From Candidatus Bipolaricaulaceae bacterium (GTDB lineage: Bacteria > Bipolaricaulota > Bipolaricaulia > Bipolaricaulales > Bipolaricaulaceae): a DNA stretch of 64,000 bases. Position numbers and translations under genes: made by a program. Where the stretch lies: positions 1-64,000 of the forward strand of contig JBNGCS010000007.1 of assembly GCA_049975705.1 (NCBI GenBank). Direction: 5' to 3'. The notes beneath the pieces are model-generated. The model had not been told where the DNA came from. It did no database searches and saw only the letters and a program-made list of their open reading frames with translations. Positions 33,965 to 55,655 of the stretch are shown here, piece after piece; position 1 is the first letter of the stretch; each line of letters begins with the position of its first letter.

Positions 33965-35182
33965 ATGGGCAAGGTGTTGACCTTCGTGCTGGCTGGCGGG
34001 CGCGGCGAGCGACTGTGGCCGTTGACCCGGGACCGGGCGAAGCCGGCGGTGCGCCTTGGGGGTATCTACAGGATCATCGACACCCTCAGCAACTGTCTTA
34101 ATTCGGGGCTGCGTCAGGCATTCGTCCTCACCCAGTACAAGTCTCTGTCGCTGGCGCGGCACATCGACCTAGGTTGGAGCCTGTTCAGCTCGGCAGTCGG
34201 CGAGTTCATCGCCACCGTACCCCCACAGCAGCGCATCGCCAACCACTGGTGCCTGAGGACTGCCGACGCCATCTACCAGAATTGGTATTCGGTAGAGCGG
34301 CATTCGCTGTCCTGGGACCGGCCGGGCCTGATCCTGGCCGGCGACCACGTATACAAGATGGACTACCGGATCATGGTCTCAGCGCATCGGGAGCGGGACG
34401 CCGACCTCACCGTGGGGGTGGTCACGATGGATCGGCGCCAGGCGGCGGGCAAGCTGGGGGTGTTGGCGGTGGATCGAGATTGGCGGGTCCTCCAGTTTGA
34501 GGAGAAGCCGGGCCAGCCCACGCCGTCGCCGGAGGATCCCGGCAGCTGCCTGGCCTCCATGGGCATCTACGCCTTCAAGACCGATGTGCTGTGGACCAGG
34601 CTGCAGGAGCACGCCGACGATCCCCGGTCCGGTCACGACTTCGGCAGGGATGTGATCAACCGCATGGTGGGCGAGGACAAGGTGCTCGCCCTGCCGCTGG
34701 CGGCGGCCAGCCGGAATGACGTCCCCTACTGGCGCGACGTGGGCTCGCTGGACGCCTATTGGGACGCGCACATGGACTTGGTGGCCGTGATGCCCCAATT
34801 CAACCTCTACGACCGCCGCTGGCCGATTCACACTTACTACGCGCCCTGGCCCCCGGCGAAGACCGTCCACCGAGAGCCGGGTCGGACGGGGGAGGCCCTG
34901 GATTCCCTGCTATCCCCCGGCTGCATTGTGTCCGGGGGGCGGGTGGTGCGCTCTGTCCTGTCGCCCGGGGTGCGGGTGAACAGCTACGCCCTGGTGGAGG
35001 AGTCGGTGCTCCTCGACGACGTGGACGTAGGCCGGGGTGCCCGCATTCGGCGGGCCATCGTGGACAAAGGGGTCAACATCCCTGCCGGGGAGGAGATTGA
35101 GTACAGTAGGCCTCAGGACGAGCGCCGCTTCGACGTCTCCCCGGCGGGGGTGGTGGCCATTCCCAAGGAATACGCCTTCTGA
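33965..35182 (+). CDS. glgC: glucose-1-phosphate adenylyltransferase
   Basis: ATG after GGGGAGGGAAGAG; VLAGGRGERLWPLT..PAV..GG.YRIID; C-terminal left-handed beta-helix. Confidence 0.85.
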   Translation: MGKVLTFVLAGGRGERLWPLTRDRAKPAVRLGGIYRIIDTLSNCLNSGLRQAFVLTQYKSLSLARHIDLGWSLFSSAVGEFIATVPPQQRIANHWCLRTADAIYQNWYSVERHSLSWDRPGLILAGDHVYKMDYRIMVSAHRERDADLTVGVVTMDRRQAAGKLGVLAVDRDWRVLQFEEKPGQPTPSPEDPGSCLASMGIYAFKTDVLWTRLQEHADDPRSGHDFGRDVINRMVGEDKVLALPLAAASRNDVPYWRDVGSLDAYWDAHMDLVAVMPQFNLYDRRWPIHTYYAPWPPAKTVHREPGRTGEALDSLLSPGCIVSGGRVVRSVLSPGVRVNSYALVEESVLLDDVDVGRGARIRRAIVDKGVNIPAGEEIEYSRPQDERRFDVSPAGVVAIPKEYAF

Positions 35183-35191
35183 GGAGGACAG

Positions 35192-36211
35192 ATGCCAGAG
35201 CTTAGGCGGGAACCGATCATGGAGCGGTGGGTGATCATCGCCCCTGAGCGGGCCAAGCGCCCCTCAGATTACCGTTCCCAGAGTGCGGAGGAGGGGGAGG
35301 CTGATACGGCGAGCTGCCCGTTCTGCCCGGGCAACGAGCACATGACCCCTCCAGAGCTCTACCGGGTGGGGGGATCTGACTGGCAGGTGCGAGTGGTCCC
35401 CAACAAGTTCCCCGCCCTGGGGGACTATCCCGAGCTGGGCCGCGCCGCGGTGGGTGGTTTTTTCGACCGGATGAACGGCGTGGGGACCCATGAGGTGGTG
35501 GTGGAGACCCCGGACCACTGCCACGAGCTCCCGGACCTTCCGGTCGAGCACATCAAGGTGGTGGTGGACACGTACGTGCACCGCCTGCGCGAGCTGATGC
35601 ACAACTCCTGGTACCGCTACGTCCTGTTGTTCAAGAACCACGGCCGCGCGGCCGGCGCGTCGCTGGCCCATCCCCACGCCCAGATCATCGCCACCCCGGT
35701 GACACCGCGCCACGTGCGAGCTCACCTGCAAGCGGCCAAGGCTTACTACGAGCGGAAGGAACGGTGCATCTTCTGTGACATCCTGTTGCAGGAGCTCCGG
35801 CTGGGCGAGCGGGTGGTGGAGGAGGTCGACGGGTACGTGATCTGGGCGCCGTTCGCGTCGCGCTTCCCTTTCGAACTCCACATCTTCCCCCGCTACCACT
35901 CCCACGATTTCACCACCATGACCGAGCAGCAGAAGTGGGGCCTGGCGCGGGTGTTGAAGAAATCCCTGGGGCGGCTGAAGGCACTGTTGGGGGATCCGCC
36001 GTACAACTTCGTGCTTCAGAACGCCCCCAACCCGGTCCCCCGGCCCGGCAAGCCCGGCTACTGGGCCACGTTGCAGTACGACTACCATTGGCACTTGGAG
36101 ATCATCCCCCGCCTCACTCGGGTGGCAGGTTTCGAGTGGGGGACGGGCTTCTACATCAATCCCATGCCTCCCGAGGAGACGGCGGGCTACCTGCGGGAGG
36201 TCGACGCCTGA
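35192..36211 (+). CDS. galT: galactose-1-phosphate uridylyltransferase-family (HIT superfamily) nucleotidyltransferase
   Basis: CPFCPGNE Zn motif, HPHAQII (H-x-H-x-Q) active site; within the glgC block so substrate may be ADP/UDP-glucose rather than galactose. Confidence 0.7.
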   Translation: MPELRREPIMERWVIIAPERAKRPSDYRSQSAEEGEADTASCPFCPGNEHMTPPELYRVGGSDWQVRVVPNKFPALGDYPELGRAAVGGFFDRMNGVGTHEVVVETPDHCHELPDLPVEHIKVVVDTYVHRLRELMHNSWYRYVLLFKNHGRAAGASLAHPHAQIIATPVTPRHVRAHLQAAKAYYERKERCIFCDILLQELRLGERVVEEVDGYVIWAPFASRFPFELHIFPRYHSHDFTTMTEQQKWGLARVLKKSLGRLKALLGDPPYNFVLQNAPNPVPRPGKPGYWATLQYDYHWHLEIIPRLTRVAGFEWGTGFYINPMPPEETAGYLREVDA

Positions 36212-36221
36212 GGAGGTAGAC

Positions 36222-37220
36222 ATGCCGTACTACGGTGGACACGAATTGAGGCGGGTATACCAGGAGGCCAGTCGCCATAAGTTCGCGTTGGTGGCCAACA
36301 ACTTCGCCGAGTCGAACGTGCTGTTGGGCCTGCTGGCCGCCTACGAAGAGGCGGGCAGTGATCTGCTCCTCCAGGTCTCTCTGGGGGCGGCCAAGTTTGC
36401 CGGCGCTGGCAAACCCCTGGCGGGCCTGCGGGCCCTGGTCGCGTACGTGCGGGCAGTCGCCGCCGAGGCGGCCGTTGGGGTGTTCGTGAATCTGGACCAC
36501 ATCACGCCTGACCAAGTGGCCAACTTCGTACGTCCGGCCCTGGAGGAGGGGCTGTGTTCCTCGGTGATGATCGACGCCTCCGCCCTCCCGTTTGAGGAGA
36601 ACGTCGACGCCACCCGGGGGGTGGTGGAACTGGCTCGCCCCTATGGGGCTTTGGTGGAGGGGGAGCTGGGCAAGATCAAGGGGGTGGAGGACGAGATCGC
36701 CTCCGACGAGGCCTTCTACACCCAGCCCGAGGAGGCGGCTGAGTTCGTCCGGCGTACCAGGGTGGATCTCCTGGCCGTGTCGGTGGGCACTCAGCACGGC
36801 GTGTCCAAGGGGCGAGACCTGACCCTGCGGGTGGAGCTGGCCCGGGAGATCGACGACTGTTTGCGCCAGCAGGGGCACGAGGTGCCGCTGGTGCTGCACG
36901 GGGCATCGGGTCTGTCCGGCGACCAGGTACGTGCCCTGGTGGAGGCGGGGGTGGCCAAGGTGAACAAGGACACCACCTATCAATACGTGTTTGGCAACGC
37001 GGCCTGTCAGTTCTACGTGGAGAACCGGGAGGCAATCCTCCCCCCACCCGGGAGTCGGTTCGACCCCATCACCTTCGAGGCGCAGGGTGCTGACTGGTCA
37101 CCGGAAAAGAAGGTATTCGACCCCCGGGTGATGGGGAGGAAGGTGCAGGAGGCGATCCGTCAGGTGGCCGCGGACATGATCGGACAAGTCGGATCAGGAG
37201 GGAGGTCTCTCTATGCCTGA
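36222..37220 (+). CDS. fba: class II fructose-/ketose-bisphosphate aldolase
   Basis: ATG after TGAGGAGGTAGAC; class II aldolase metal-site pattern (..DH..LDH..HG.SG..); 332 aa. Confidence 0.8.
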   Translation: MPYYGGHELRRVYQEASRHKFALVANNFAESNVLLGLLAAYEEAGSDLLLQVSLGAAKFAGAGKPLAGLRALVAYVRAVAAEAAVGVFVNLDHITPDQVANFVRPALEEGLCSSVMIDASALPFEENVDATRGVVELARPYGALVEGELGKIKGVEDEIASDEAFYTQPEEAAEFVRRTRVDLLAVSVGTQHGVSKGRDLTLRVELAREIDDCLRQQGHEVPLVLHGASGLSGDQVRALVEAGVAKVNKDTTYQYVFGNAACQFYVENREAILPPPGSRFDPITFEAQGADWSPEKKVFDPRVMGRKVQEAIRQVAADMIGQVGSGGRSLYA

Positions 37221-38307
37221 AGTGAAGAGGATTGGAGTGCTCACCGGCGGGGGCGACTCTCCGGGCATCAACTCCGCCCTCCGCGCCATCGTCAGGCGGG
37301 CTAGGATCGCCGGGGTGGAGGTGGTGGGTTTCCGGGACGGTTGGCGGGGCCCCGCTGAAGACGACGGCCAGGTCCTGTCGCTCAAGCACGTCTCGGGGAT
37401 CCTGCACATGGGGGGAACCGTGCTGGGCACCTCGCGCACCAACCCGTTCACCAAGGTGGTGCGGGATGGGGAGCAGATCTGGGAGCCCACTGACAAGGTG
37501 GACCACATCGTGGCCACCCTGGAGCATCGCAAGCTGGATGCGCTGATCGCCATCGGGGGCGACGACACCCTGGGGGTCGCCCACCGGCTGGGCCAGCACG
37601 GGGTGCGCGCGGTGGGCATCCCCCAGACGATCGACAACGACATCGGGGGCACTGACTATGCCATCGGGTTCCACTCCGCGCTGGCCACCGTGACGGAAGC
37701 CCTGGACAAGCTCCACACCACCGCTCACGCCCACCATCGACTGCTGATTGTGGAGGTCATGGGCCGGGACTCCGGCTGGATCGCTGTTTGCGGCGGCCTG
37801 GCCGGCGGCGCGGACGTCATTCTCGTCCCCGAGGGTCCCCCCGAAGGGTCGTTCTCGGTGGACGACGTCCTGGAGGTGGTGGACAGGCGCCTGCAGCAGG
37901 GCCGGAGGTTCTCCATTGTGGTGGTGGCCGAGGGGGCCCGCCCACGCGAGCTGGGGGGACGGCAGGTGAGCCGCAGCGGCGTGGACCCATTTGGCCACGT
38001 GCAGCTGGGGGGTGTGGGGTACTGGCTGGCCGCGGAGTTGGAGAAGCGTGACCTTCCCCTCACCCCGCGGGTCACCGTGCTGGCCTACCTGCAACGGGGC
38101 GGCACCGCTACCCCGTTCGACCGCCTGCTGGCCACCCGGTTGGGGGCAGCTGCCGTGGAGTTCGCCATGGACGGGAAGTTCGACGTGTTGACCGGGTTGC
38201 ACGGTCAGCGAGTGGTCCCCGTTCCCCTGGCCGATGCCCTGGCCCAGTGTCCGAAGCCGGTGGATCCCGAGCTCCTTCGGGTGGCCCACAACATCGTGCT
38301 GACCTAG
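37213..38307 (+). CDS. pfkA: 6-phosphofructokinase
   Basis: RIGVLTGGGDSPGINSA, ..IGGDD.., ..MGRDSGWIA.. PFK motifs; ATG after GGAGG, overlaps fba end. Confidence 0.85.
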   Translation: MPEVKRIGVLTGGGDSPGINSALRAIVRRARIAGVEVVGFRDGWRGPAEDDGQVLSLKHVSGILHMGGTVLGTSRTNPFTKVVRDGEQIWEPTDKVDHIVATLEHRKLDALIAIGGDDTLGVAHRLGQHGVRAVGIPQTIDNDIGGTDYAIGFHSALATVTEALDKLHTTAHAHHRLLIVEVMGRDSGWIAVCGGLAGGADVILVPEGPPEGSFSVDDVLEVVDRRLQQGRRFSIVVVAEGARPRELGGRQVSRSGVDPFGHVQLGGVGYWLAAELEKRDLPLTPRVTVLAYLQRGGTATPFDRLLATRLGAAAVEFAMDGKFDVLTGLHGQRVVPVPLADALAQCPKPVDPELLRVAHNIVLT

Positions 38308-38315
38308 GAGGTCAG

Positions 38316-39461
38316 ATGGGACGAGTGTTGCTTCTGCTGCTGGCTGCGGTGAGCCTGGTCGCCGTGGGTGCTGCTCCGGGGGCGGATCTGTTCGCCCCCC
38401 TAGGCGACGTGTATCAAGTTATCCGCAGCTACTATTACCGGGCGCAGGAGGTGGAGGACAACGACCTCCTGCACGGGGCCCTACGGGGGATGATCGACGC
38501 CCTGGGCGACCCTTACTCCGCCTTCTTCGATCCCCAGGAGTATGCGCAATGGCAGGACAGTCTGGTGGGGGAGTATTCCGGGGTGGGGATGGAGATCACG
38601 GTGCGGGACGGCAAGGTCACCGTGGTCGCCCCGCTGCCGGGGACGCCGGCGGAGGAGGCGGGGATTCAAGCCGGAGACTGGATCAAGGCGGTGGACGGCC
38701 AGTCAACTGAGGGGTGGTCGCTCGAGCAGGCATCTCAGCAGATCCGTGGTCAGGAGGGCACGGTGGTGACCCTGACAGTGGAGCACCCCGACGGCACTGC
38801 ACAGGAGGTGGTCATCACCCGGGCGCGCATCCACGTTGACCCCGTGCGGGCCGAGTACCTGGAAGAGGAACAGGTCGGCTACGTGCGTCTCCTGCGTTTC
38901 GATTTCGACACCGCCGCCGAGCTGGGCAGGGCGCTGTACGGCTTTCCTCTGGACTCGCTGCGCGGGGTGGTCCTGGACCTGCGCAACAACCCAGGCGGGG
39001 TGTTGTCGGCGGCGGTGGCCGTGGCCAGCTACTTCGTGGACGAAGGGACCGTGGTGCAGACCAAGGGTGCCCACCCCGGCACCCGAACCTACGCCAGCAG
39101 CGGGAACAGTTTCCCCAACGTTCCCGTGGCCGTGCTGGTCAACCAGGGCACCGCCTCGGCCTCGGAGATCGTGGCCGGAGCGATTCAGGACCGTGGGGTG
39201 GGCGTGCTGGTAGGGCGCCCGACGTTCGGCAAGGGGCTGATCCAAGAGTTCGTCATGCGCCTGCCGGACGGATCGGCCGTCAAGCTGACCACGGGGGAGT
39301 ACTTCACTCCCGCGGGGAACCCCGTTCAGGATGTGGGCCTCGCCCCAGACATCCCGGTGGATGCGGAGGATTCCCCGTCTGCCGATCAGGACCCGGACCT
39401 GGCGGCGGCGCTGGCGTGGATCTCCAGCCGAGCCGGGCAGCCGGTCGGCGCGGGTGAGTGA
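38316..39461 (+). CDS. ctpA: carboxyl-terminal processing protease (S41, tail-specific protease) with PDZ domain
   Basis: ATG after AGGAGGT; signal peptide; PDZ (GIQAGDWIKAVDG), S41 catalytic region ..GTASASEI.. and ..GRPTFGKG.. Confidence 0.8.
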   Translation: MGRVLLLLLAAVSLVAVGAAPGADLFAPLGDVYQVIRSYYYRAQEVEDNDLLHGALRGMIDALGDPYSAFFDPQEYAQWQDSLVGEYSGVGMEITVRDGKVTVVAPLPGTPAEEAGIQAGDWIKAVDGQSTEGWSLEQASQQIRGQEGTVVTLTVEHPDGTAQEVVITRARIHVDPVRAEYLEEEQVGYVRLLRFDFDTAAELGRALYGFPLDSLRGVVLDLRNNPGGVLSAAVAVASYFVDEGTVVQTKGAHPGTRTYASSGNSFPNVPVAVLVNQGTASASEIVAGAIQDRGVGVLVGRPTFGKGLIQEFVMRLPDGSAVKLTTGEYFTPAGNPVQDVGLAPDIPVDAEDSPSADQDPDLAAALAWISSRAGQPVGAGE

Positions 39462-40465
39462 AGGCGGCGGTAGTTGGGGCGGGCAGTTGGGGCACCGCCT
39501 TCGCCCGACTGCTGGCCAGGGCCGGCCACCGGGTGGTCCTGTGGGCTCGGCGAGTGGAGTTGGCGGACCACCTGCGGGAGCGGGGGGAGAACCCTGACTA
39601 CCTCCCCGGGGTTCGCCTGCCGCCGGGGGTGGGGTGCACGGCGGAGCTGGGCGAAGCCCTGGCCGAGGCGGAGGTGGTCTTCCTGGCCGTGCCCAGCTTC
39701 GCCATGGCTGAGCTGGCAGCCAGGGTCGCCGGGCTGCTGCCGCCAGGGGTCCCGGCGGTACACCTGGCCAAGGGCCTGGAGCCGCAGACCGGGCGGCGGA
39801 TGTCGGAGATCCTGGGCGCGGCCCTGCCGGACCGGCCGCTGTTCGCCCTGTCGGGCCCCTCCCACGCCGAGGAGGTAGCACGCGATCATCCCACCGCGGT
39901 GGTCCTGGCCGGTCCCGAGCTCCGCTGGGGGCACCGGCTGCAGCACGATCTGATCACCGCTCGGTTTCGCGTCTACCTGTCAGACGATCTGGTGGGGGTG
40001 GAGTATTGCGGGGCGGTGAAAAACGTGCTGGCCGTGGGGACGGGGCTTGCTGATGGGCTGGGCTATGGAGACAACACCCGGGCTGCACTGATCACCCGCG
40101 GACTGGCGGAGATGGTGCGATTCGGCCGAGCGGTGGGAGCGCGCCCGGCCACCTTCTACGGCCTGGCTGGGCTCGGGGACCTGGTGGTGACCGCCACCAG
40201 CCCCCACTCCCGCAACCGCCAGGTTGGTCTCCGGGTCGGGCAGGGCGAACGGTTGGCGGACGTGCTGGCCGGGATGCGCATGGTGGCCGAAGGCGTCCAC
40301 ACCACGGAAATCCTCTACCGGAAGGCCAGTGAGCTGGGTGTGGAGATGCCTATCACCGCCGCGGTGTACCGGGTTCTGCACCTTGGCCAGGATCCCCGGG
40401 GGCAGATCGACCCGCTCATGCTCCGCTCGCCCAAGCGCGAGACCTCCGGGGGGCTGGAGGAGTAA
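39458..40465 (+). CDS. gpsA: NAD(P)H-dependent glycerol-3-phosphate dehydrogenase
   Basis: GTG start overlapping ctpA stop; VVGAGSWGTA Rossmann motif; GpsA C-terminal domain. Confidence 0.85.
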   Translation: MKAAVVGAGSWGTAFARLLARAGHRVVLWARRVELADHLRERGENPDYLPGVRLPPGVGCTAELGEALAEAEVVFLAVPSFAMAELAARVAGLLPPGVPAVHLAKGLEPQTGRRMSEILGAALPDRPLFALSGPSHAEEVARDHPTAVVLAGPELRWGHRLQHDLITARFRVYLSDDLVGVEYCGAVKNVLAVGTGLADGLGYGDNTRAALITRGLAEMVRFGRAVGARPATFYGLAGLGDLVVTATSPHSRNRQVGLRVGQGERLADVLAGMRMVAEGVHTTEILYRKASELGVEMPITAAVYRVLHLGQDPRGQIDPLMLRSPKRETSGGLEE

Positions 40466-40484: not shown

Positions 40485-43400
40485 CTACTCGCCCCCCGGC
40501 TGGGGCAGCTTGGCGGCAACCGGGAACCGAGTGACCAGCTCGCCCCATACCGTCAACGGCAGGCGGGCTCCTACCTCCAGCCGGGCAGGCAGATCCTTGT
40601 CGACAAGGAACCCCAGCGGCGTCCCCTCCGCAAGGCCGCGCCGCTCCAGCAGGGCCATGCCCACCTGACCATCTTCCAGCGGGGTGCAGCTGGTAACCCA
40701 GCCCAGCATGCGGCCAGATCGGTCCACCACCCCCGCCTCCGCGCGAATGGGTCGGCTTCCGGCGGGGATCCGGAACCGTACCACCTCCCGTTTCCACGCC
40801 TCCAGCGCGCGCAGGTACGCCTCCCGGCCGACGAAGAACGGCTTGTGGAGCTTGACGTAGGGGGCGAACCCTGCCTCGTGGGGGGCGATGTGGTGACGGC
40901 CGGCCAACTCGTGGCCAAACAGGGGTAGGCCCGCCTCGGTGCGGAGGGAGTCACGGGCGGCCAGCCCGCACGGTGCCACCTGGAAGGGCTCGCCCGCCTC
41001 CAGAATCCGCCCCCAGATCTCCTCTGCGTCCTGTGGGTGCACGTACAGCTCGTAGCCCAACCCCTCCCCTGTGTAGCCGGTGCGGGCGCACAGCACGTCC
41101 CGACCGCCCACCGAGAGCTCGAGGAACTCTGTGCGGCGCAGGGCACGCAGCCGGCGAGCATCCCGCGGGGACACCAGCCGCACCAGCACGGCCCGGGAGG
41201 CGGGCCCCTGCAGGGCGAGGTCGATCCGCGGGTCGGGGGCATGTGGTTCCTTGAGGTTGGCCAGGGTCACTTCCCCATCCGGCTCCACCCATGGCCGCTC
41301 GGGGTCCAGCAGAACTTGTCCGGAATTCACCGCGCACATCCAGTCCCAGTCCCTTGCCTCGTTGGCCGCGTTCACCACCACCAGGAACCGATCCCGGGCC
41401 CTGCGGTACACCATGAGGTCGTCGATCACTTCTCCGGCTGGAGTGAGCAGGAAACCGTACTGCGACTGTCCGGGGTGAAGCCAACCCGCGTAGTTGGTGG
41501 TTACCAGGTTGAGGAAGGACTCTGCGTAGCGGCCGGCGACCTCGAATATCCCCATGTGTCCCAAGTCGAACAGTCCGGCGCGCTGTCGCACCGCGCGGTG
41601 CTCGGCCAGGGCGGAGCTGTACCAAGCGGGCATCTGGTAGCCGGCGAACTGCACCAGCTTGGCCCCCAGCTGGCGGTGGATCTCCGTGAGGGGGGTGGTC
41701 TGCCCCTCCCGGCTGGGGGCGATGGGGGCACGCGCGTCCTTGGCCTCGGGCAAGGTAATGGCGTGTCCTCCCACGAAGTACGGCTTGCGGGGGGCGAACA
41801 GGTGTGGATGGTCTCGAAACACGGAGGCGGCGTCTCCGGCCACGCCGGCGAACAGGGCCTCCTGCCGGCGGGACTCAGTTTGATCTCCGTCCAGCTCGAC
41901 GTTCAGGTCGCCTTCACCTTCCAGGTGAAACGCCAACTCACCGGTGGACGCGTCGCCGGCTGCCATGGCGCTCACCACCGCCGGCCCCTGGACCTTGCGA
42001 TAGATGTCGCCATGATCGAACAGAACGTAGCCGTCGGCCAAGCCCGCCAGCCAACGGCGCAGCGGCTCGACTTGGCCGGGCGGGGCCAGAACGGCGAACC
42101 TCTCGCCGCCTTCAGGACCGTCCGGCAGCCGGCCCACGATCGCCTCCGCCACCACCTGAGCGTCGGCGTCGAAGAGGGCGGCCCGGCGGGCGCGCCCCAC
42201 GGTGAGGGACAGGATGTGGGCAGAGCTGGCCTCGTGTAGCAGGTGCCCCGCCCGTCCGCCCTGTACCAGCAGGGCTCCGCAGGGTGACGACGGGCCGCGC
42301 CCCACTGCGGCGGTCAGCCGACAGGGCGCGGCGGTCCTGTCCCGGGTCTGCCCGGTTCCTTGCCCGTCGACGTCCGCGCCCCGGCGGGCCAACCGGGCGA
42401 CCCGGGCCCGGGACTCGCTCAGCAGGCCCACGGGGACCTTGCCGCGGGATAGCGGGCCGGTGAGGCCCAGATAGCTGAAGGGGCGGATCTCGGTGAGCAC
42501 CCGGGCGGTGATTTCCGCGATCTCTTCCATCTCGGCCTTTCCCATTCCCCGCTGGGTCACCCAGGGCGTGCCGTAGCGGATGCCGCGGGCATCGGCGGCC
42601 GAGGTGTCCCCGGGGATGGTGTTCTTGTTCGCCACCAGGCCGACCAGGTCAAGCAGCCGGGCGGCGATCTCTCCCATCAGGGGCTGACCGTTCGGCGTGC
42701 GCACCTTGCGCAGATCGATGACCAGCAGGTGGGTGTCTGTCCCCCCGTAGCACAGCCGAAGACCCTGCTGTTGGAGGGCGTGGGCCAGGTGGCGGGCGTT
42801 GTCCACGATGCGGTGCTGGCAGGTCCGGAAACTCTCAGTCCTTGCGATCTGGAAAGCGCAGGCCATGGCCGCGAACTTGTTCACGTGGGGCCCCCCCTGC
42901 GCGCCCGGAAATACCGCCAGCTCGATCGCCTTGGCCAAGTCAGGGTCGCAGGTCAGGATCACCGCCCCCCGCGGCCCCGCCAGGGTCTTGTGGGTGGTGA
43001 ACATCACTACGTCGGCGTGGCCGACCGGGTTGGGATAGGCGCCGGCGGCTGCCATCCCGGCGGTGTGGGCGATGTCCGCCAGCAGCAACGCCCCGGCCGC
43101 GTCGGCGATCTCTCTGAAAGCCTCCCAGCTTGGGGCCCACGGGTAGGAAGTGTAGCCCGCCACGATCATCTTGGGCCGGTGTCGCTTGGCCAGATCGAGA
43201 ATCTGGTTGTAGTCGAGCCGTTCACTCCGGGGGTCCACGCTGTAGGGGACCACCTTGAACCGGCGGCCGGACTGGTGGAACGGGGAGCCGTGGGACAGAT
43301 GTCCCCCCTGGGTTAGGTCAAGGGCCATGAGCGTGTCCCCGGGGGACAGGAGGGCGTCGTAGATCGCCATGTTCGCCGCGGCGCCTGAGAGGGGCTGTAC

Positions 43401-43799
43401 GTTGGCGAATATCTCGTCTGGCCCCACCAGTTCGTTGGCGAAGCACTCCGCCGCCCGCCGACAGGCGAGCGATTCCAAGACGTCCGCCATCTCCACGCCC
43501 TTGTAGAAGCGGCGGTCGGCGTACCGCCGGAAATAGGCCAGCTGCTCGGGGAGGTCGACCAGCCGGCTCTCGGGCAGTCGGAGGGTCTCCTCCCGCGGGT
43601 ATCCCTCAGCGTAGATGGAGGTGAACACGGATTGGAGCGCCTCGCGGACGGCGACGGGAGTGAGGGATTCGGAGGGGATGAGGATGATCTTGTCTCGTTG
43701 GCGCCTCTCTTCGGCATTGATTAATTTCTGCAACTGGGCGTCCATCTCTGCCAGCGCCATGGTCCACAGCAGGCGTTCGTCCATTGAAGCTCCTTTCAC
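40485..43799 (-). CDS. tri-partite fusion: serine hydroxymethyltransferase (N) - unknown ~280-aa region - glycine-cleavage T-protein/aminomethyltransferase (C)
   Basis: One uninterrupted 1104-aa frame; aa 1..~440 carry SHMT motifs (LIPSESLT, EGYP, VQPLSGAAAN, TTHKTLAGPRG, PGAQGGP, VANKNTIP, RGIRYGTPWVTQRG); aa ~740..1104 align to GcvT (LFDLGHMG, EVIDDLMVYR, CARTGYTGEGLGYE, ARDSLRTEAG). Confidence 0.75.
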   Translation of the reverse strand: MKGASMDERLLWTMALAEMDAQLQKLINAEERRQRDKIILIPSESLTPVAVREALQSVFTSIYAEGYPREETLRLPESRLVDLPEQLAYFRRYADRRFYKGVEMADVLESLACRRAAECFANELVGPDEIFANVQPLSGAAANMAIYDALLSPGDTLMALDLTQGGHLSHGSPFHQSGRRFKVVPYSVDPRSERLDYNQILDLAKRHRPKMIVAGYTSYPWAPSWEAFREIADAAGALLLADIAHTAGMAAAGAYPNPVGHADVVMFTTHKTLAGPRGAVILTCDPDLAKAIELAVFPGAQGGPHVNKFAAMACAFQIARTESFRTCQHRIVDNARHLAHALQQQGLRLCYGGTDTHLLVIDLRKVRTPNGQPLMGEIAARLLDLVGLVANKNTIPGDTSAADARGIRYGTPWVTQRGMGKAEMEEIAEITARVLTEIRPFSYLGLTGPLSRGKVPVGLLSESRARVARLARRGADVDGQGTGQTRDRTAAPCRLTAAVGRGPSSPCGALLVQGGRAGHLLHEASSAHILSLTVGRARRAALFDADAQVVAEAIVGRLPDGPEGGERFAVLAPPGQVEPLRRWLAGLADGYVLFDHGDIYRKVQGPAVVSAMAAGDASTGELAFHLEGEGDLNVELDGDQTESRRQEALFAGVAGDAASVFRDHPHLFAPRKPYFVGGHAITLPEAKDARAPIAPSREGQTTPLTEIHRQLGAKLVQFAGYQMPAWYSSALAEHRAVRQRAGLFDLGHMGIFEVAGRYAESFLNLVTTNYAGWLHPGQSQYGFLLTPAGEVIDDLMVYRRARDRFLVVVNAANEARDWDWMCAVNSGQVLLDPERPWVEPDGEVTLANLKEPHAPDPRIDLALQGPASRAVLVRLVSPRDARRLRALRRTEFLELSVGGRDVLCARTGYTGEGLGYELYVHPQDAEEIWGRILEAGEPFQVAPCGLAARDSLRTEAGLPLFGHELAGRHHIAPHEAGFAPYVKLHKPFFVGREAYLRALEAWKREVVRFRIPAGSRPIRAEAGVVDRSGRMLGWVTSCTPLEDGQVGMALLERRGLAEGTPLGFLVDKDLPARLEVGARLPLTVWGELVTRFPVAAKLPQPGGE

Positions 43800-43811: not shown

Positions 43812-44918
43812 TTACTTGGCCAACCGCAGCGGCCGCCATCGCCGGGGCATCAGCTGGATTCCGGGCCGGGCCAGCTCCACCGCCAGGTACATCCCCCCCG
43901 ACACCAGCGCGTGCCCCCCCAGGAGGAAGGGAATCGGGGCGCGGGCGCAGGCTTCCGCCAGCTCCCGTAGAAACGGGGTCTGCACCGCGTCTGTCTGTAG
44001 CAGATCGCAAGCGAACCTGTCGTCGGGCAGCGGCCACAGGCCCCGGGCGGCGAGTAGCACCCGAGTGTCCCACACCACGCCGTGGGCCAGCTTGGACAGC
44101 GTCTCCACCAGTCGGGAGGGCGGATCGACCAACGCGGTGAGCAAGGAGCGGACTTCCCCCCTGGCGGCCCGACCGGTGGCCTCCATGCCCCGCCCCTCAG
44201 ATATGAACCGCACGGGGCAGGCTGCCTCCTCCTCCAGCAGGCGCATCACGTGGCCGCCCACTCTGCCGGCAAGCAGCAACGCCCCCTCCGGGCGGGAGAG
44301 GGTCTCCACTAGGCTTTGGGCCCGCTGCCTGGGGACTCCGTCCAGCGCCCGGCGCAGCTCCTCCGGAAGTCCAGGCCGCAGCGCCAGCAGCTGCAGTTCC
44401 CCCGGCGTATCGATGTCCAGCTGAGTGCCCGACGTCCGGGGCAGTTCGTAGCAGGTGTAGCCCGCCTCCCACAGTCGCAGGCCCAACGGGTTGTCCCGCT
44501 CCAGTCCGCGGAACAGTGTGGAAGGCGCGGGGCAGATCAGGCCGAAATCCACGGAGTAGAAGTTGTTGAGAATGGCGTAGGGGGGGGCGCAGGGGGCCGC
44601 GCTGAACAGGCGGGCGAGTTCTTCCTCCTGCATGAGAAACGCGCTCCCGGCGGAGAAATAGGCCACCTGTTGTGCGCCGAACTCACTGCTGAGTTGGGCG
44701 AGGCGCCCCCCGAACGCCCACGGGCCGGCCGGGTCGGGTACCACTTCCACGCCGCCTACGTCTTCCCAGTCCACCGGGCAGCGGGTGGCGATGACCACGC
44801 GGTTCAGCTCAGTAATTGCTGACAGTCTCCGGGCTAGCGTCCGACCCGCTGCCGTCCGCGCCCGCGGCACCACGCCCGCCCCGCCGCGGTCGAACAGGAG
44901 GGCGAGCGTCCCGGCCAT
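43812..44918 (-). CDS. hypothetical protein (368 aa), last gene of rpsF-ssb-rpsR operon
   Basis: 4-nt gap after rpsR; no recognisable motifs; occupies position usually held by rplI. Confidence 0.45.
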   Translation of the reverse strand: MAGTLALLFDRGGAGVVPRARTAAGRTLARRLSAITELNRVVIATRCPVDWEDVGGVEVVPDPAGPWAFGGRLAQLSSEFGAQQVAYFSAGSAFLMQEEELARLFSAAPCAPPYAILNNFYSVDFGLICPAPSTLFRGLERDNPLGLRLWEAGYTCYELPRTSGTQLDIDTPGELQLLALRPGLPEELRRALDGVPRQRAQSLVETLSRPEGALLLAGRVGGHVMRLLEEEAACPVRFISEGRGMEATGRAARGEVRSLLTALVDPPSRLVETLSKLAHGVVWDTRVLLAARGLWPLPDDRFACDLLQTDAVQTPFLRELAEACARAPIPFLLGGHALVSGGMYLAVELARPGIQLMPRRWRPLRLAK

Positions 44919-44921
44919 TCC

Positions 44922-45143
44922 CTAAGGCCTGGTCTCGTAGGGGAGCAGGGCTACCTTGCGGGCACGATTGATCTCCCGGGCCAGCTTGCGTTGGTGTTTG
45001 GCGCACAGGCGGGTGATCCGGCGGGAGAGGATCTTCCCCCGGCGGTTCATGAACTGCTGGAGCGCATCCGGCTGCTTGTAGTCAAGCTTCAGGCCCTGGT
45101 GGCAGGCCCGGCAAACCCGTCTTCTCCTTTGGTACGCCATCAA
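44922..45143 (-). CDS. rpsR: 30S ribosomal protein S18
   Basis: CR.C.. N-terminus, ..LKLDYKQPD.L..F...RGKIL.RR.T.LCAKHQRKLAREI..AR. Confidence 0.85.
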   Translation of the reverse strand: MMAYQRRRRVCRACHQGLKLDYKQPDALQQFMNRRGKILSRRITRLCAKHQRKLAREINRARKVALLPYETRP

Positions 45144-45562
45144 AACGGAACCTCCTCTTCAGAGTTGAGGTCGGGCGTGCTCTCGGTGTCCTGTTCGGGT
45201 TGGCCCTCGTAGTCCGACGTCGACTGCGGCTTGGGCCCCAAGAAGTGGACGCTCTGGGCGTTCACCTCTGCGATCCGCCTTCGCTCCCCTCCTTGGGTCT
45301 CGAAAGAACGGAACCGCAGCCGTCCGTCCACCGCCACTAACCTCCCCTTTTGAAGGTATGTGGCACACATTTCAGCTTGTTTGCCCCAGGCGACCACGGG
45401 AATGAAATCGGCGTCCTCTTCCCATTCCCCGGAGTCAGGATTCAACCACCGACGGTTGACGGCCACCCGGAAGTTGACCACTGCCCGTCCAGATTGAGTG
45501 TATCTCAGCTCAGGATCGGCTGCCAATCGCCCGGTGAGGAGTACCCTATTGAGATCTGACAT
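45140..45562 (-). CDS. ssb: single-stranded DNA-binding protein
   Basis: OB-fold N-terminus MSDLNRVLLTGRLAADPELRYT.SG.AV..F..AV; acidic tail ending EEEVPF. Confidence 0.85.
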   Translation of the reverse strand: MSDLNRVLLTGRLAADPELRYTQSGRAVVNFRVAVNRRWLNPDSGEWEEDADFIPVVAWGKQAEMCATYLQKGRLVAVDGRLRFRSFETQGGERRRIAEVNAQSVHFLGPKPQSTSDYEGQPEQDTESTPDLNSEEEVPF

Positions 45563-45565
45563 ACC

Positions 45566-45901
45566 CTACCCTTGATCCAAGCGAACGACCTGATACCGGA
45601 GTATCTCGTCGTCCATGTTGAATCGGCTCTCCAGCCCCTTCAGCTGATCGCTCGCCAGCTCGAACGTGACCAGTACGTAGTACCCCTCCCTGAAGTGATC
45701 GATCTCGTAGGCCAAGATCCGCGACCCCCACTCGTCGACCCCCTGGACCTGTCCCCCCTGGGACTCGATGATCTGGTTCACCTTAGCCACCTTGTGCTGG
45801 CGCTGCTCCTCGTCCAGGTCGGGGCGCAGGATATAGAGCATCTCATAGCCGCGGACTTCTTCCGCCAAGTCGGTATCCTCCTTCTCAAACGATGTTCTCA
45901 A
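45566..45901 (-). CDS. rpsF: 30S ribosomal protein S6
   Basis: ..YEMLYILRPDL.EE.....V..V...I...GG.V...D.WG.R.LAY.I family pattern. Confidence 0.85.
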   Translation of the reverse strand: MRTSFEKEDTDLAEEVRGYEMLYILRPDLDEEQRQHKVAKVNQIIESQGGQVQGVDEWGSRILAYEIDHFREGYYVLVTFELASDQLKGLESRFNMDDEILRYQVVRLDQG

Positions 45902-45975
45902 CAGGTAATTTAGCGTGGACAGGACGGTCTGTCAACTGAGGGGGCGAGAAACGCCCATGGCAAAAGGCATACCTC

Positions 45976-52635: not shown

Positions 52636-53612
52636 TTGATGATGGCCGTCCCGTAGCAGGCGCCCGCTCCGAACGCGGTCATGGCCACCACTTGGCCCGC
52701 CCGGAGCCGCCCCGCTCTGACCAGTTCGTCCAGGGCAATGGGAATGGATGCCGTGGAGGTGTTTGCCGCCCGGTCGATGTTCACCACCACCCGCTCACGG
52801 GGGATGGACAGCCGGCGGGCCAGCGGGTTGATGATCCTGAGGTTCGCCTGATGCGGGATTAGCCAATCGACGTCCCCCGGGGACAGTCCGCTGCGGCGCA
52901 GCGCCTCTCGGGTGGCTTGCTCCATCATGGGCACAGCTGTGCGGAATACCCCTTCTCCTTCCATCTTCAGGTAGTGCTGTTTGCGGCGCACCGTCTCAGC
53001 CGAAGTGGGCAGCCCTACGCCCCCCGCCTCGATAGTGAGCAGGTGAGCTTTGGACGGGTCGCCGTACAACGCCACGCCCAGGATGGCCGCCTCACCCGAC
53101 GATGGCTCGAGGAGCGCCGCTCCCGCCCCGTCGCCGAACAGCACACAGGTGCGTCGGTCCTCCCAATCCACGATCCGCGACAGGGCCTCCACCCCGATCA
53201 CCAGGGCAGAGCGGGCCAGGCCCGCCTCCAGGTAGCCTCCGGCCACGGCCACGCCATACACGAACCCGGCACAGCCCGCCTTGAGGTCGAAGAACGGGGC
53301 GTCGTGCTCCAGCCCCAGCCCTGCCGCGACGTAAGGCGCGGAGCCAGGGATGATCCGCTCAGGCACGTTGGTGGCCACCAGCAGCAGGTCCACCTCGCCC
53401 GGTTCCCGTCTCGCCGCCGCCAGGGCGGCCTGGCCGGCGCGGACGCCCATGTCCGCCGCCGCCGCGCCGTCGTCCAGCAGTCGCCGCTCCCTGATCCCCG
53501 TCCGCGAGCGGATCCACTCGTCGCTCGTGTCCACCATGTGGGCGAGGTTCTCGTTGGTAAGACGCCGCTCTGGCAAGAAGGCGCCGGTTCCGGTTACCCT
53601 AACTCTCAGCAC
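52629..53612 (-). CDS. fabH: 3-oxoacyl-[ACP] synthase III
   Basis: Start trimmed to GTG (MLRVRVTGTGAFLPE..); ..MVDTSDEWIRSRTGIRERR.., ..AGCAGFVYG.. catalytic Cys, ..HQAN.RI.., ..GN.S.ASIP.. Confidence 0.8.
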   Translation of the reverse strand: MLRVRVTGTGAFLPERRLTNENLAHMVDTSDEWIRSRTGIRERRLLDDGAAAADMGVRAGQAALAAARREPGEVDLLLVATNVPERIIPGSAPYVAAGLGLEHDAPFFDLKAGCAGFVYGVAVAGGYLEAGLARSALVIGVEALSRIVDWEDRRTCVLFGDGAGAALLEPSSGEAAILGVALYGDPSKAHLLTIEAGGVGLPTSAETVRRKQHYLKMEGEGVFRTAVPMMEQATREALRRSGLSPGDVDWLIPHQANLRIINPLARRLSIPRERVVVNIDRAANTSTASIPIALDELVRAGRLRAGQVVAMTAFGAGACYGTAIIKW

Positions 53613-54591
53613 CCTGGGAAAGTCCCTCGCGGATCCGGGCGACCAGGCCGGCCTGCGTCGCCCAGAACGTCCTCTCCACAGCCGCCTCCATAGCCCGGGC
53701 GGTGGACCGCCCATGGGCTAGCATGACCAGCCCCTGCACGCCCAGCAAGGGCGCCCCATTGTACCGATCGTAGCGCAGCTGACGGGCGACCTCGCGCAGA
53801 GAGCCGCGCAGCAGGCCTGCGCCCAACCGGCCCTGCAGGGATGCCGATGAGCGGCGCTTGAACGCTTCCCACACCGCCTCCGCCCCGCCCTCCAGGGCCT
53901 TGATCACCAGGTTGCCCGCGAACCCCCCCGTTACCACCACGTCGACTGGGCGGTGGATAAGCAGCTCGTGTGGTTCGACGTTTCCGGCGAACCCCGGTTC
54001 CTTCTCAAGCAGCTTGTGGGCCGCCCGTACCAGCTTGTCCCCCTTCAAGGCCTCGCTGCCGATGGAGAGGAGGCCGATGGTCGGTTCGGGGATCCCCAGC
54101 ACCTCTTGGGCGAACAGCCGGCCCATGTGGGCGAACTGGGCCAGGTGGGGTGGCTTGGGCTCGGCAGTTGCCCCGGCGTCGATGACAAGGGCCTGCTTGC
54201 CCGCCAGGGTGGGCAGTGAGGCACACAGCCCCGGCCGCTTGACGCCCGCCAGCCGCCCCAACACGGCGAGGGAGGCGGCCACCACTGCCCCGGTGTTTCC
54301 CGACGACAAGAACCCGTCGGCTTCCCCGCCCTTGACCATCTCCAGCCCGCGGACCACGGAGGTTCCCCGCTGCCGGATGGCCTGCACCGGGGGGGCTTCG
54401 GGCGCCACGAAACCCTCGCAGTCAACGATCTCTGCGGGGGCTTCTGGCGGGATGTGCGGCTCAATCAACCGGCGGCGCCCGACCAGAATCAGCTGGATGG
54501 GAAGGCGCTCGGCGGCGGCCAGCGCCCCAGCAGCGAGCTCCTCAGGGGGGCGGTCTGCGCCCATAACGTCCACAACGATACGCACGGCCAT
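53599..54591 (-). CDS. plsX: phosphate acyltransferase
   Basis: Start trimmed to ATG 54591 (MAVRIVVDVMGAD) because the longer track ORF runs across a tRNA gene; PlsX family throughout. Confidence 0.8.
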   Translation of the reverse strand: MAVRIVVDVMGADRPPEELAAGALAAAERLPIQLILVGRRRLIEPHIPPEAPAEIVDCEGFVAPEAPPVQAIRQRGTSVVRGLEMVKGGEADGFLSSGNTGAVVAASLAVLGRLAGVKRPGLCASLPTLAGKQALVIDAGATAEPKPPHLAQFAHMGRLFAQEVLGIPEPTIGLLSIGSEALKGDKLVRAAHKLLEKEPGFAGNVEPHELLIHRPVDVVVTGGFAGNLVIKALEGGAEAVWEAFKRRSSASLQGRLGAGLLRGSLREVARQLRYDRYNGAPLLGVQGLVMLAHGRSTARAMEAAVERTFWATQAGLVARIREGLSQGAES

Positions 54592-54602
54592 AAAAAAACT
54601 TG

Positions 54603-54688
54603 TGCCGAGGGTGGGACTTGAACCCACACGGGCACAATGGCCCACTGCCCCCTCAAGACAGCGCGTCTGCCAATTCCGCCACCTCGGC
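54603..54688 (-). tRNA. tRNA-Leu (anticodon GAG), long variable arm
   Basis: Hand-folded: acceptor GCCGAGG/CCTCGGC, D-arm GCG..CGC, anticodon stem CTGTC/GGCAG with loop TTGAGGG (GAG), extended variable arm, T-arm GTGGG-TTCAAGT-CCCAC; 86 nt; CCA not encoded. Confidence 0.8.
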
Positions 54689-54776
54689 CGGCGCGATGTT
54701 AGTCTTCGGTGCGGTTCACGTCAAGGCTTGCTTCATCCTGCCCCCTGGGATAGCTTGGGGTGTGGCGACCACTCCG

Positions 54777-55655
54777 GTGAGGTTCGGCGTCTATTCGGGG
54801 GACCCGTTGGCCGTGGAGCGGACTGTGGCCCAGCGGCTGCAGGCGCTGGGGGCGGTGGAGAGGATCGCCCTGTTCGGCGACGACGTTCCCGTAGGACAAG
54901 TGCTGTCGGAGCTGGGCACGGAGAACCTGTTCCAGCAGGACAAAGCGCTGGTCGTGCGGCGCGCCGACGCCCTGCTGGCCAAGGAGCAGCTGGCCGACGC
55001 CCTGGAGGACGGGCCTCCCCCGCACTGCGCGGTGTTCTTCCTCGGGGAGCGTCAGCGGGGGCGGCTTCCCCGCCTGGCGCAGGAGGCCAAGCACTTCCCC
55101 CTGCCCAGGGGCCGCGCCCTGCGGGCGCTGGCCGCGGACCTGTTGGAGGAGGCGGGGCTGCCGGCCCCACGCTTCCTGGTAGACATGTTGGCTGAGGCCG
55201 CGGGAGGGGACACCCTCCATCTGGCTCGAGAGGTGGAGAAACTCGTACTGTGGGAGGGGGAGCGGCTGGCCCGTTTCCAGGTCCCCCGGCTCCTGTTCTT
55301 CGCCGAGCCCAGGCCGTATGCCTTCCTGGACGCGGTGGGGGAGCGCGACCTGGCCACGGCCCTGGCCGAGCTGGGTCGTTTGCTGAGCTCGGGTTGGGAT
55401 CCCTTCCGGCTGTTCTTTGTGCTGGCCGCGCACCTCCGTGCGCTGCTCACCACCCTGGCGGCCGTGGCGGACGGGCGCACCCCGCCCGGGCCCGGCTGGC
55501 TTGCCCGCCGGCGCCTACACCAGGCCCAGCGCTACTCGGCGGCAGAGCTGGTGGGGCTGCTGGCGCGGCTTCAACAGCTGGACATGCTGATCAAGACCGG
55601 GCGATGCGCTCCGCGAGACGCCCTGTTTCAGTTCATCCTTGGCCTGGAACCCTAG
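54777..55655 (+). CDS. holA: DNA polymerase III delta subunit
   Basis: GTG start; family resemblance (..LVLWEGERLARF.., C-terminal helical domain ..ELVGLLARLQQLDMLIKTG..); N-terminal part of track ORF overlaps the tRNA and is discarded. Confidence 0.55.
   Translation: MRFGVYSGDPLAVERTVAQRLQALGAVERIALFGDDVPVGQVLSELGTENLFQQDKALVVRRADALLAKEQLADALEDGPPPHCAVFFLGERQRGRLPRLAQEAKHFPLPRGRALRALAADLLEEAGLPAPRFLVDMLAEAAGGDTLHLAREVEKLVLWEGERLARFQVPRLLFFAEPRPYAFLDAVGERDLATALAELGRLLSSGWDPFRLFFVLAAHLRALLTTLAAVADGRTPPGPGWLARRRLHQAQRYSAAELVGLLARLQQLDMLIKTGRCAPRDALFQFILGLEP

Follow-up and report, generated by a model that had tools for sequence, protein, structure and literature searches.

A three-module fusion of serine hydroxymethyltransferase and glycine-cleavage T-protein with a putatively decayed internal GcvT copy, conserved across Candidatus Bipolaricaulota

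In photorespiration, plant mitochondria couple glycine decarboxylase and serine hydroxymethyltransferase (SHMT) non-covalently via methylene-tetrahydrofolate (methylene-THF), whereby two glycines yield serine, CO2 and NH3. The plant enzymes that carry out this reaction pair are separate proteins, whereas the gene that we describe here combines SHMT and the T component (T-protein, GcvT) of the glycine cleavage system (GCS) in one polypeptide. The gene lies in a stretch of 64,000 nucleotides from a Candidatus (Ca.) Bipolaricaulaceae bacterium (assembly GCA_049975705.1, contig JBNGCS010000007.1, positions 1 to 64,000 of the forward strand; hereafter the window). It encodes a real protein that is conserved across the phylum Bipolaricaulota and that is not an assembly artefact. 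This polypeptide of about 120 kDa probably consists of three modules, namely an active SHMT, a decayed GcvT copy and an active T-protein, and probably serves as housekeeping SHMT and as T component of the GCS.

The N-terminal part of the protein can be compared with stand-alone GlyA, such as the SHMT of G. stearothermophilus (PDB 2VMV, 1KKJ). It is likewise a full-length fold-type-I pyridoxal phosphate (PLP) enzyme in which the checked catalytic residues are conserved, but it differs by a 26-residue insert after the sequence YAEGYP, by a C-terminal hairpin-helix extension, and by the some 630 further residues that are attached to it. The C-terminal part is closest, by sequence as well as by structure, to GcvT (B. 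subtilis 1YX2, T. maritima 1WOO, human 1WSR, E. coli 3A8I), with which it shares the complete three-domain fold and five THF-contact residues, whereas it differs in being joined to an SHMT, in an insert of about 20 residues, and in scores that are slightly below the NCBIfam cutoffs for GcvT. GcvT-fold folate modules that are joined to a catalytic module and that pass a C1 unit onto THF are also known from dimethylglycine oxidase/dehydrogenase, sarcosine oxidase alpha and trimethylamine N-oxide demethylase, but these are weaker structural and sequence matches, and the fusion scores far below their cutoffs and is not a member of this group. In these enzymes the partner domain makes the C1 donor, whereas the SHMT of the fusion itself uses THF/methylene-THF and the expected donor for its T module is a separate H-protein. 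Related multi-module proteins with the architecture SHMT-GcvT-GcvT and a length of about 1225 residues exist in Anaerolineae/Chloroflexi (P0069, P0103, and the 1202-residue product of a gene in locus L081). They are 46-51% identical to the window protein from end to end, they have the same SHMT insert and the same invariant motif in the middle, and at least in L081 the same partner gene is found upstream. The middle of these long proteins is a complete GCV_T domain, whereas that of the window protein comprises about a third of the domain and a divergent tail. This middle module has a parallel in Iba57/YgfZ, which kept the GcvT fold and lost the canonical THF-contact residues (PMC9551070).

A preliminary description of the window had noted a stop-free frame at 40485..43799, counted as 1104 codons from a GTG. 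This frame is indeed present, on the minus strand, but its length has to be corrected. The ATG at 43784 has an AAGGAG (43790-43795) 5 nt 5' of the start codon, as read directly from the sequence, and since GTG 43799 is situated inside this AAGGAG ribosome-binding region, the true start is almost certainly ATG 43784. The product therefore has 1099 residues (119.6 kDa) rather than 1104, and it is identical to the NCBI gene model P0001. All residue numbers given here refer to this 1099-residue protein. The gene and its parts are as follows.

40485..43784, minus strand: fusion gene glyA::gcvT'::gcvT, 1099 residues, ATG at 43784, stop codon at 40485-40487
43790..43795, minus strand: Shine-Dalgarno sequence AAGGAG, 5 nt upstream of ATG 43784
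42378..43784, minus strand: SHMT module, residues 1-469, with PLP lysine K266 in a TTHKT motif
43518..43595, minus strand: SHMT insert of 26 residues (64-89) after YAEGYP, with invariant R87 and Y88
42378..42485, minus strand: C-terminal extension of the SHMT module, residues 434-469, predicted by AlphaFold2 (AF2) as beta-hairpin (strands 434-439 and 444-450) and helix (452-469)
42327..42377, minus strand: variable linker, residues 470-486, predicted local distance difference test score (pLDDT) below 50 at 472-481, 15% pairwise identity
41769..42326, minus strand: middle module GcvT', residues 487-672, ending in a KPYFVG motif, with its core at 487-606; delimited by Pfam, hhalign and AF2
41982..42053, minus strand: invariant motif of the middle module (W578...P601), from invariant columns of the 16- and 80-sequence alignments
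40830..41702, minus strand: folate-binding domains of the T-protein, residues 695-985, Pfam GCV_T 263.9 bits, catalytic Asp D789
40515..40829, minus strand: C-terminal beta-barrel of the T-protein, residues 986-1090

A complete SHMT and a complete GcvT in one frame had been recognized before, and this was borne out by a domain scan with Pfam profiles, which gave SHMT with E=1.9e-114, GCV_T with E=1.7e-78 and a weak GCV_T_C over the full frame. The genome has a GC content of about 70%, but a chance long frame in high-GC DNA was considered unlikely from the beginning, and rightly so, as the frame has a coding signature throughout: the first codon position has a high GC content (GC1), the second (GC2) has 0.40-0.63 and the third (GC3) has 0.80-0.90 in every 100-codon window, including the middle. 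Could the middle region merely mirror a gene of the opposite strand? The plus-strand open reading frames (ORFs) 41037..42239 and 42729..43316 have GC1>GC3, which is the mirrored pattern of antisense shadows, and it is thus these ORFs that are shadows of the fusion gene.

The conservation of the fusion was assessed with 80 related loci that were fetched and with alignments of 16 and 80 sequences. A single uninterrupted ORF leads from SHMT to T-protein in 64 of the 80 loci, 14 more are cut by contig ends, and locus L077 contains an intact long form of 1243 residues. In locus L005 (7768-10504), which belongs to the Acetothermia metagenome-assembled genome (MAG) UBA3574, the SHMT ORF stops at 10164 and the match to the middle region runs on to 10504; this sole interrupted copy among the 80 loci probably reflects a frameshift or an assembly error. 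Uninterrupted ORFs are also found on long contigs of up to 1.7 Mb, in assemblies from many studies. A search for orthologous fusions, which had been proposed as a check, detected full-length homologs in more than 120 clusters at 90% identity in a collection of 5.8 billion proteins, and a probe that consisted of the middle region only matched 369 species-representative genomes. Homologs with 52-70% identity have 1052-1122 residues and originate, where the source is named, from Ca. Bipolaricaulota/Acetothermia; a group with 46-47% identity and about 1220-1236 residues is named from Anaerolineae. The fusion had been called unusual, which is true when textbook organisms are the yardstick, but in Ca. 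Bipolaricaulota it is the rule, it is common in some Anaerolineae, and it is already annotated publicly. Fusions of the Bipolaricaulota type were also seen in MAGs that are titled ‘uncultured Thermotogae/Thermotogaceae bacterium’ or ‘Thermotoga sp.’ (L002, L016, L021, L029, L038-L042 and others) and in one MAG titled ‘Neomarinimicrobiota’. These titles are probably coarse or outdated taxonomic labels and do not indicate a true occurrence in Thermotogae.

The SHMT module clearly exceeds the cutoffs of its profiles (PF00464, 382.8 bits vs 27; NF000586 of NCBIfam, 417 vs 335), and the complete fold-type-I PLP fold is present. The PLP lysine K266 and eight further key residues align to the SHMT of G. 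stearothermophilus, and all nine, which include Tyr, Glu, His, Asp, Asn and Arg of the active and folate sites besides the Lys, are invariant in 80 of 80 homologs. By its sequence, the module is presumably catalytically competent. The insert at 64-89 is present in short and long fusions alike, and neither this insert nor the extension at 434-469 has a counterpart in the SHMT of G. stearothermophilus or in a stand-alone Chloroflexi SHMT that is 44% identical, which makes both of them candidates for inter-module interfaces. An NCBIfam model for an SHMT of 496 residues, ‘PRK13580’, partly covers the extension (300 bits vs a cutoff of 735), and this partial match hints at a stand-alone long-SHMT relative.

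In case of the T module, the Pfam GCV_T score of 263.9 bits compares with a cutoff of 25.6, the PDB entry 1YX2 is matched with E=3e-60, and the three-domain T-protein fold is present including the C-terminal barrel, with 348 of 371 residues superimposing at 2.0 A root-mean-square deviation. Human GcvT contacts THF with the residues M56, D101, Y197, E204 and R233, of which R233 is specific to GcvT (PMC9551070). The corresponding residues of the T module are M744, D789, Y904, E912 and R944, and they are invariant in 80 of 80 sequences. The T module is therewith likely to be a catalytically competent aminomethyltransferase.

The region in between had been described as some 280 unassignable residues that represent an unknown extra domain, and neither point withstood closer analysis. 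The SHMT extends to about residue 469, the linker comprises 470-486, a folded GcvT-like remnant comprises 487-672, and the T-protein begins at about 695. With BLASTP, the middle region of the window protein gave nothing against its own T module (E=0.2), and the relationship was detected by profile methods only. Residues 461-695 alone reach 23.5 bits with Pfam GCV_T, which is under the cutoff of 25.6 and covers profile positions 46-147 of 255, whereas the middle region of the long Anaerolineae-type proteins is a complete Pfam GCV_T domain without barrel (E=4e-49, positions 2-237). An hhalign comparison of the middle with the C-terminal GcvT region gave a probability of 99.8% (E=2e-29), and when only the short Bipolaricaulota-type sequences were used, the middle still matched the T module with 97.1% (E=5e-11). 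In a neighbor-joining tree, which is small and has only two canonical T-proteins as outgroups, the long-form middle and T modules are sister clades to the exclusion of the B. subtilis and T. maritima T-proteins, with a bootstrap of 94/100. Moreover, the middle and T modules have extra residues in common at the site of the insert of about 20 residues by which the T module differs from B. subtilis GcvT. The hhalign match, the sister-clade tree and these shared extra residues point to the middle module being an internal tandem duplicate of the GcvT folate-binding domain, and since the long-form middle is a complete GCV_T domain, the ancestral architecture would be SHMT-GcvT-GcvT.

In the window protein, the middle module contains neither a complete folate-binding domain nor a C-terminal barrel, and yet it is predicted to fold. 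A structure prediction of this region had been suggested, and the AF2 model of the whole fusion, calculated as monomer from the 80-sequence alignment (pLDDT 87.7, predicted template modelling score (pTM) 0.87), has residues 487-631 folded, with block-mean pLDDT values of about 88-97 over the core (about 500-600). The order of strands and helices in the middle module mirrors that of the T module. The only disordered stretches of the model are 472-481 in the linker, 294-297, and the C-terminal tail. The core 487-606 has 53% pairwise identity among short forms, compared with 51% for the T barrel and 15-20% for linkers, and the tail of the module (607-660) is 20% conserved. Eight residues of the middle are invariant (W578, Y586, F589, D590, D593, K597, G600 and P601; consensus WLxGLADGYVLFDxxDIFRKVQGP), and this motif is absent from canonical T-proteins. 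The peptide FAVLAPPGQVEPLRRWLAGLADGYVLFDHGDIYRK, which had been quoted for the unassigned region, is found in the protein and contains this most conserved motif of the middle module.

The residues of the folate site went a different way. The short-form middle lacks the segments that bear the THF-contact Met, Tyr, Glu and Arg, i.e. four of five positions are gone, and at the fifth, the position of the catalytic Asp, there is Glu in 52 of 67 sequences, Pro in 7, Ala in 3 and Asp in 2. The long-form middle keeps the catalytic Asp and the GcvT-specific Arg in 13 of 13 sequences, the Met in 9, the Tyr in 6 and the Glu in 8. An intermediate is P0091 (1111 residues), whose middle starts as in the long forms (GYPHYFW...) but misses about 45 residues at the N-terminus of the second GcvT domain as well as its central part. 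This suggests repeated, independent reductions of the middle module. We infer that the middle module is a pseudo-enzyme domain that has been retained for structural or docking purposes.

Directly upstream of the fusion, on the same strand, lies a gene for a protein of 368 residues. The transcriptional neighbors are the following.

43812..44918, minus strand: partner gene for an uncharacterised two-domain protein of 368 residues, its stop 27 nt before the fusion ATG
44922..45931, minus strand: rpsF (about 45569-45931), ssb (45140-45562) and an rpsR-like ORF (44922-45143), by Pfam Ribosomal_S6 and SSB

Of the 74 loci that extend far enough upstream to be informative, 73 have the partner in this position. 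The window protein has no Pfam or NCBIfam match, even at E<=10, and weak matches to NTP_transf_3 (PF12804) were obtained for 6 of 73 members of the partner family, the best with 3e-4. At 50% identity, the family has 915 representative clusters. Most of the 150 best-scoring members listed are full-length, with about 370 residues, and some are shorter fragments. AF2 predicts two domains with a pLDDT of 95, and the N-domain of the model resembles the GT-A-like nucleotidyltransferase fold of CofC/FbiD/MobA. Invariant motifs are NN..S.D (NNFYS.D), DN, D.D.P, GR, E.RG, D.R, R...D and GGH..VSGG. The first approximately 69 positions contain no invariant residue, and D124, D142, D168 and D170 (D-I-D-T-P) are invariant; we assume that these could match the metal-binding aspartates of nucleotidyltransferases.

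As to the function of the partner, a specific tie to the GcvT part was considered and had to be rejected, as homologs adjoin stand-alone SHMT genes in other Chloroflexi. A Chloroflexi homolog with 39% identity lies directly upstream of the 1202-residue SHMT-GcvT fusion (L081 6001-10854), and distant homologs adjoin or are near a stand-alone canonical SHMT gene that is followed by rpsF-ssb(-rpsR), often after hpf, the gene of the hibernation factor (L088 5001-8376; L087 5001-10411; L089 5001-10661). Some other distant homologs have no SHMT nearby. Because homologs adjoin stand-alone SHMT genes, the link of the partner is to SHMT, and it predates or extends beyond the fusion. The pairing of partner and SHMT is retained even where its position with regard to the rps genes has changed, which suggests that the partner is functionally connected with SHMT rather than with GcvT.

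What role may such a protein play in the cell? For Ca. Bipolaricaulis anaerobius Ran1, whose genome is closed, the gene BARAN1_v2_0410, labelled ‘glyA/gcvT’, is the only entry for EC 2.1.2.1 and EC 2.1.2.10, gcvH/gcvPA/gcvPB are 0562-0564, and the genes lpd, fhs and folD are found elsewhere (Hao et al. 2018, supplementary table, PMC6092417). As this table labels a single gene ‘glyA/gcvT’ for both EC numbers, the fusion has been tacitly annotated, but it was never discussed or characterised: our literature search found no paper that describes it, the label in the table of Hao et al. being the only trace, and the KB1 paper contains nothing relevant to it.

We propose that the fusion derives from an ancestral SHMT-GcvT-GcvT protein, in which the GcvT pair would have arisen by tandem duplication, and that this form may survive in the approximately 1225-residue Anaerolineae proteins. 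The internal copy of the Bipolaricaulota would have lost the first approximately 45 and the last approximately 100 profile positions as well as most THF-binding residues, while the conserved core stayed and could now connect the two enzymes as a rigid scaffold or as an interface. The fusion would act as the housekeeping SHMT and T component of the cell, presumably using an H-protein that, like the P and L proteins of the GCS, would be encoded elsewhere. It would set two methylene-THF-handling active sites at a 1:1 stoichiometry and close together. In the glycine-to-serine or reductive glycine direction, the methylene-THF of the T module could then be handed to, or shared with, the SHMT, whereas during catabolism of serine and glycine to formate the two modules would supply the same methylene-THF pool. 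A channelling of methylene-THF between the modules would be plausible.

Several observations weigh against this view. The status of the fusion as sole SHMT and sole T-protein is taken from one published gene table, which concerns a related genome. In the window, neither gcvH, gcvP and lpd nor folD and fhs were among the 20 neighbouring or size-matched ORFs that were scanned. The AF2 model is monomeric, whereas SHMT is expected to dimerise. The T module stays under the NCBIfam cutoffs (NF001567, 281.7 vs 300; TIGR00528, 225.9 vs 235.85; with NF010093, the score is 207.2 vs a cutoff of 459), and it has the already mentioned insert of about 20 residues relative to B. subtilis GcvT, located after the NAAN helix, which plausibly explains the narrow misses of NF001567 and TIGR00528. 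Finally, the modules do not exchange any intermediate in the catabolic direction, and a kinetic advantage is therefore not self-evident; as both sites only produce methylene-THF, the benefit may be in stoichiometry or co-expression only.

This last point leads to the alternative that there is no channelling at all, and that the protein is a ‘Rosetta-stone’ fusion that is kept for co-expression and fixed stoichiometry, with the middle as a tolerated evolutionary leftover or spacer. This is possible, albeit rather unlikely in our view. The catabolic direction is the one that has been proposed for Ran1, the middle appears to have decayed stepwise, from a partial loss of Met, Tyr and Glu in the long forms via P0091 to the truncated short forms, and its tail is poorly conserved. 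However, a mere spacer would not be expected to have a core that is as conserved as the T barrel, with eight invariant residues in a motif that canonical T-proteins do not have. The high pTM of a chain of 1100 residues suggests a fixed arrangement of the modules, and the fusion-specific insert and extension of the SHMT resemble added interfaces, which also argues for more than co-expression.

In a second alternative, the middle module has retained the ability to bind a ligand or partner, such as a folate polyglutamate tail, the H-protein or the 368-residue protein from the upstream gene, and would be a docking or regulatory domain rather than an inert scaffold. The polar and aromatic nature of the invariant motif (W578...Y586..F589 D590..D593...K597..G600 P601) agrees with this, as do the acidic residue at the catalytic position of most short forms, the complete retention of Asp and Arg in the long forms, and the constant vicinity of the partner gene. 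We nevertheless regard it as unlikely, because the short forms miss four of the five THF-contact positions and have lost the N- and C-terminal thirds of the folate-binding domain. A more far-reaching version would be that fusion and partner together form an unrecognised serine/glycine one-carbon machine of Bipolaricaulota and Chloroflexi, in which GcvT' is a shared folate tunnel or docking platform by which methylene-THF goes directly from one active site to the other, T-protein and SHMT, and the partner with its CofC-like N-domain is an obligatory SHMT subunit, an activator or a cofactor-modifying enzyme. We consider this idea very doubtful.

It is also quite improbable that the C-terminal module is no T-protein of the GCS but a THF-dependent (amino)methyl or methylene transferase with another donor, perhaps provided by the upstream partner, which would imply an unrecognised pathway. 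The scores below the NCBIfam equivalog cutoffs, the lineage-specific insert that the T module has in common with the middle module, and the almost invariant operon partner without assigned function could be taken in this sense, and the GcvT family does include many proteins that are no T-proteins (DmdA, LigM, Tdm, SoxA), which are seen among the weaker matches. But the nearest relatives in sequence and fold are genuine T-proteins, none of the five THF-contact residues, among them the GcvT-specific Arg, varies, and the partner, as it also accompanies stand-alone SHMT genes without fused GcvT, is tied to SHMT. Furthermore, as Ran1 has gcvH-gcvPA-gcvPB and no other gcvT is listed, it needs a T-protein, and the fusion is the sole candidate.

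That adjacent glyA, gcvT and an extra gene were falsely joined by assembly errors or frameshifts, or that the middle is an opposite-strand shadow, could at first sight be suspected from the high-GC DNA with its long accidental frames, several ORFs of 130-400 residues overlapping on the other strand and the apparent interruption in L005, but is effectively refuted by the same uninterrupted ORF in independent assemblies and on long contigs, by a middle core that is conserved at the protein level and folds confidently, and by the antisense-type codon pattern of the plus-strand ORFs.

With respect to its genomic context, the fusion gene is the last in a minus-strand order of rpsF, ssb, the rpsR-like ORF, the 368-residue ORF and the fusion, which are separated by between a few and 27 nt. 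The S18 assignment of the rpsR-like ORF of 73 residues is a reading of its sequence. Neither a convincing terminator nor a convincing promoter was found between rpsF and the fusion gene; promoter-like sites are at 45935-45907 (TTGACA, overlapping the mechanically determined start of the rpsF ORF) and at 45526-45497 (inside ssb). The five genes are probably one transcription unit, and the one-carbon genes thus appear to ride on a ribosomal-protein/ssb transcription unit. A position in an rpsF-ssb-rpsR string fits a constitutive expression of the fusion. No riboswitch or other RNA control was detected, as a scan of the whole window with Rfam at gathering thresholds gave one tRNA only. This sole RNA gene detected in the window is a tRNA-Leu(GAG) at 54602..54688 on the minus strand; the ORFs 53599..54645 (minus strand) and 54594..55652 (plus strand) overlap it, and their true starts therefore lie further in. 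On the other side of the fusion, a housekeeping run on the plus strand (33965..40465) converges on its 3' end, encoding a GlgC/GlmU-like nucleotidyltransferase, GalT, a class-II FBP aldolase, PFK, an S41 (Ctp-type) PDZ protease and, nearest to the fusion, GpsA. A distance of 20 nt separates the end of the GpsA gene at 40465 from the fusion stop codon at 40485.

Taken by itself, the existence of the fusion is known already, as it is contained in databases under partial names and is the standard form in a whole candidate phylum, and its enzymology is ordinary. What is new is its architecture, together with the pseudo-domain and a partner that is conserved but uncharacterised. The NCBI names are ‘serine hydroxymethyltransferase’ only for Bipolaricaulota and ‘GcvT’ only for Anaerolineae, and pathway inference can therefore report a GCS without T-protein or a genome without SHMT throughout the phylum. 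The protein is also of interest for the reductive glycine pathway, which is a main synthetic route for the assimilation of formate and CO2 and whose flux depends on GCS and SHMT sharing methylene-THF: a natural covalent unit of T-protein and SHMT, derived from a thermophile, offers a ready-made test of whether proximity helps. With its 915 clusters, its confidently predicted two-domain structure, its invariant polar motifs and its repeated genomic association with SHMT, the partner family, for which neither Pfam nor NCBIfam has a model, is a concrete target for function discovery. As for the evolution of the fusion family itself, the series from the full tandem GcvT of Anaerolineae via P0091 to the truncated remnant of Bipolaricaulota may well illustrate how a duplicated enzyme domain becomes a conserved pseudo-enzyme scaffold.

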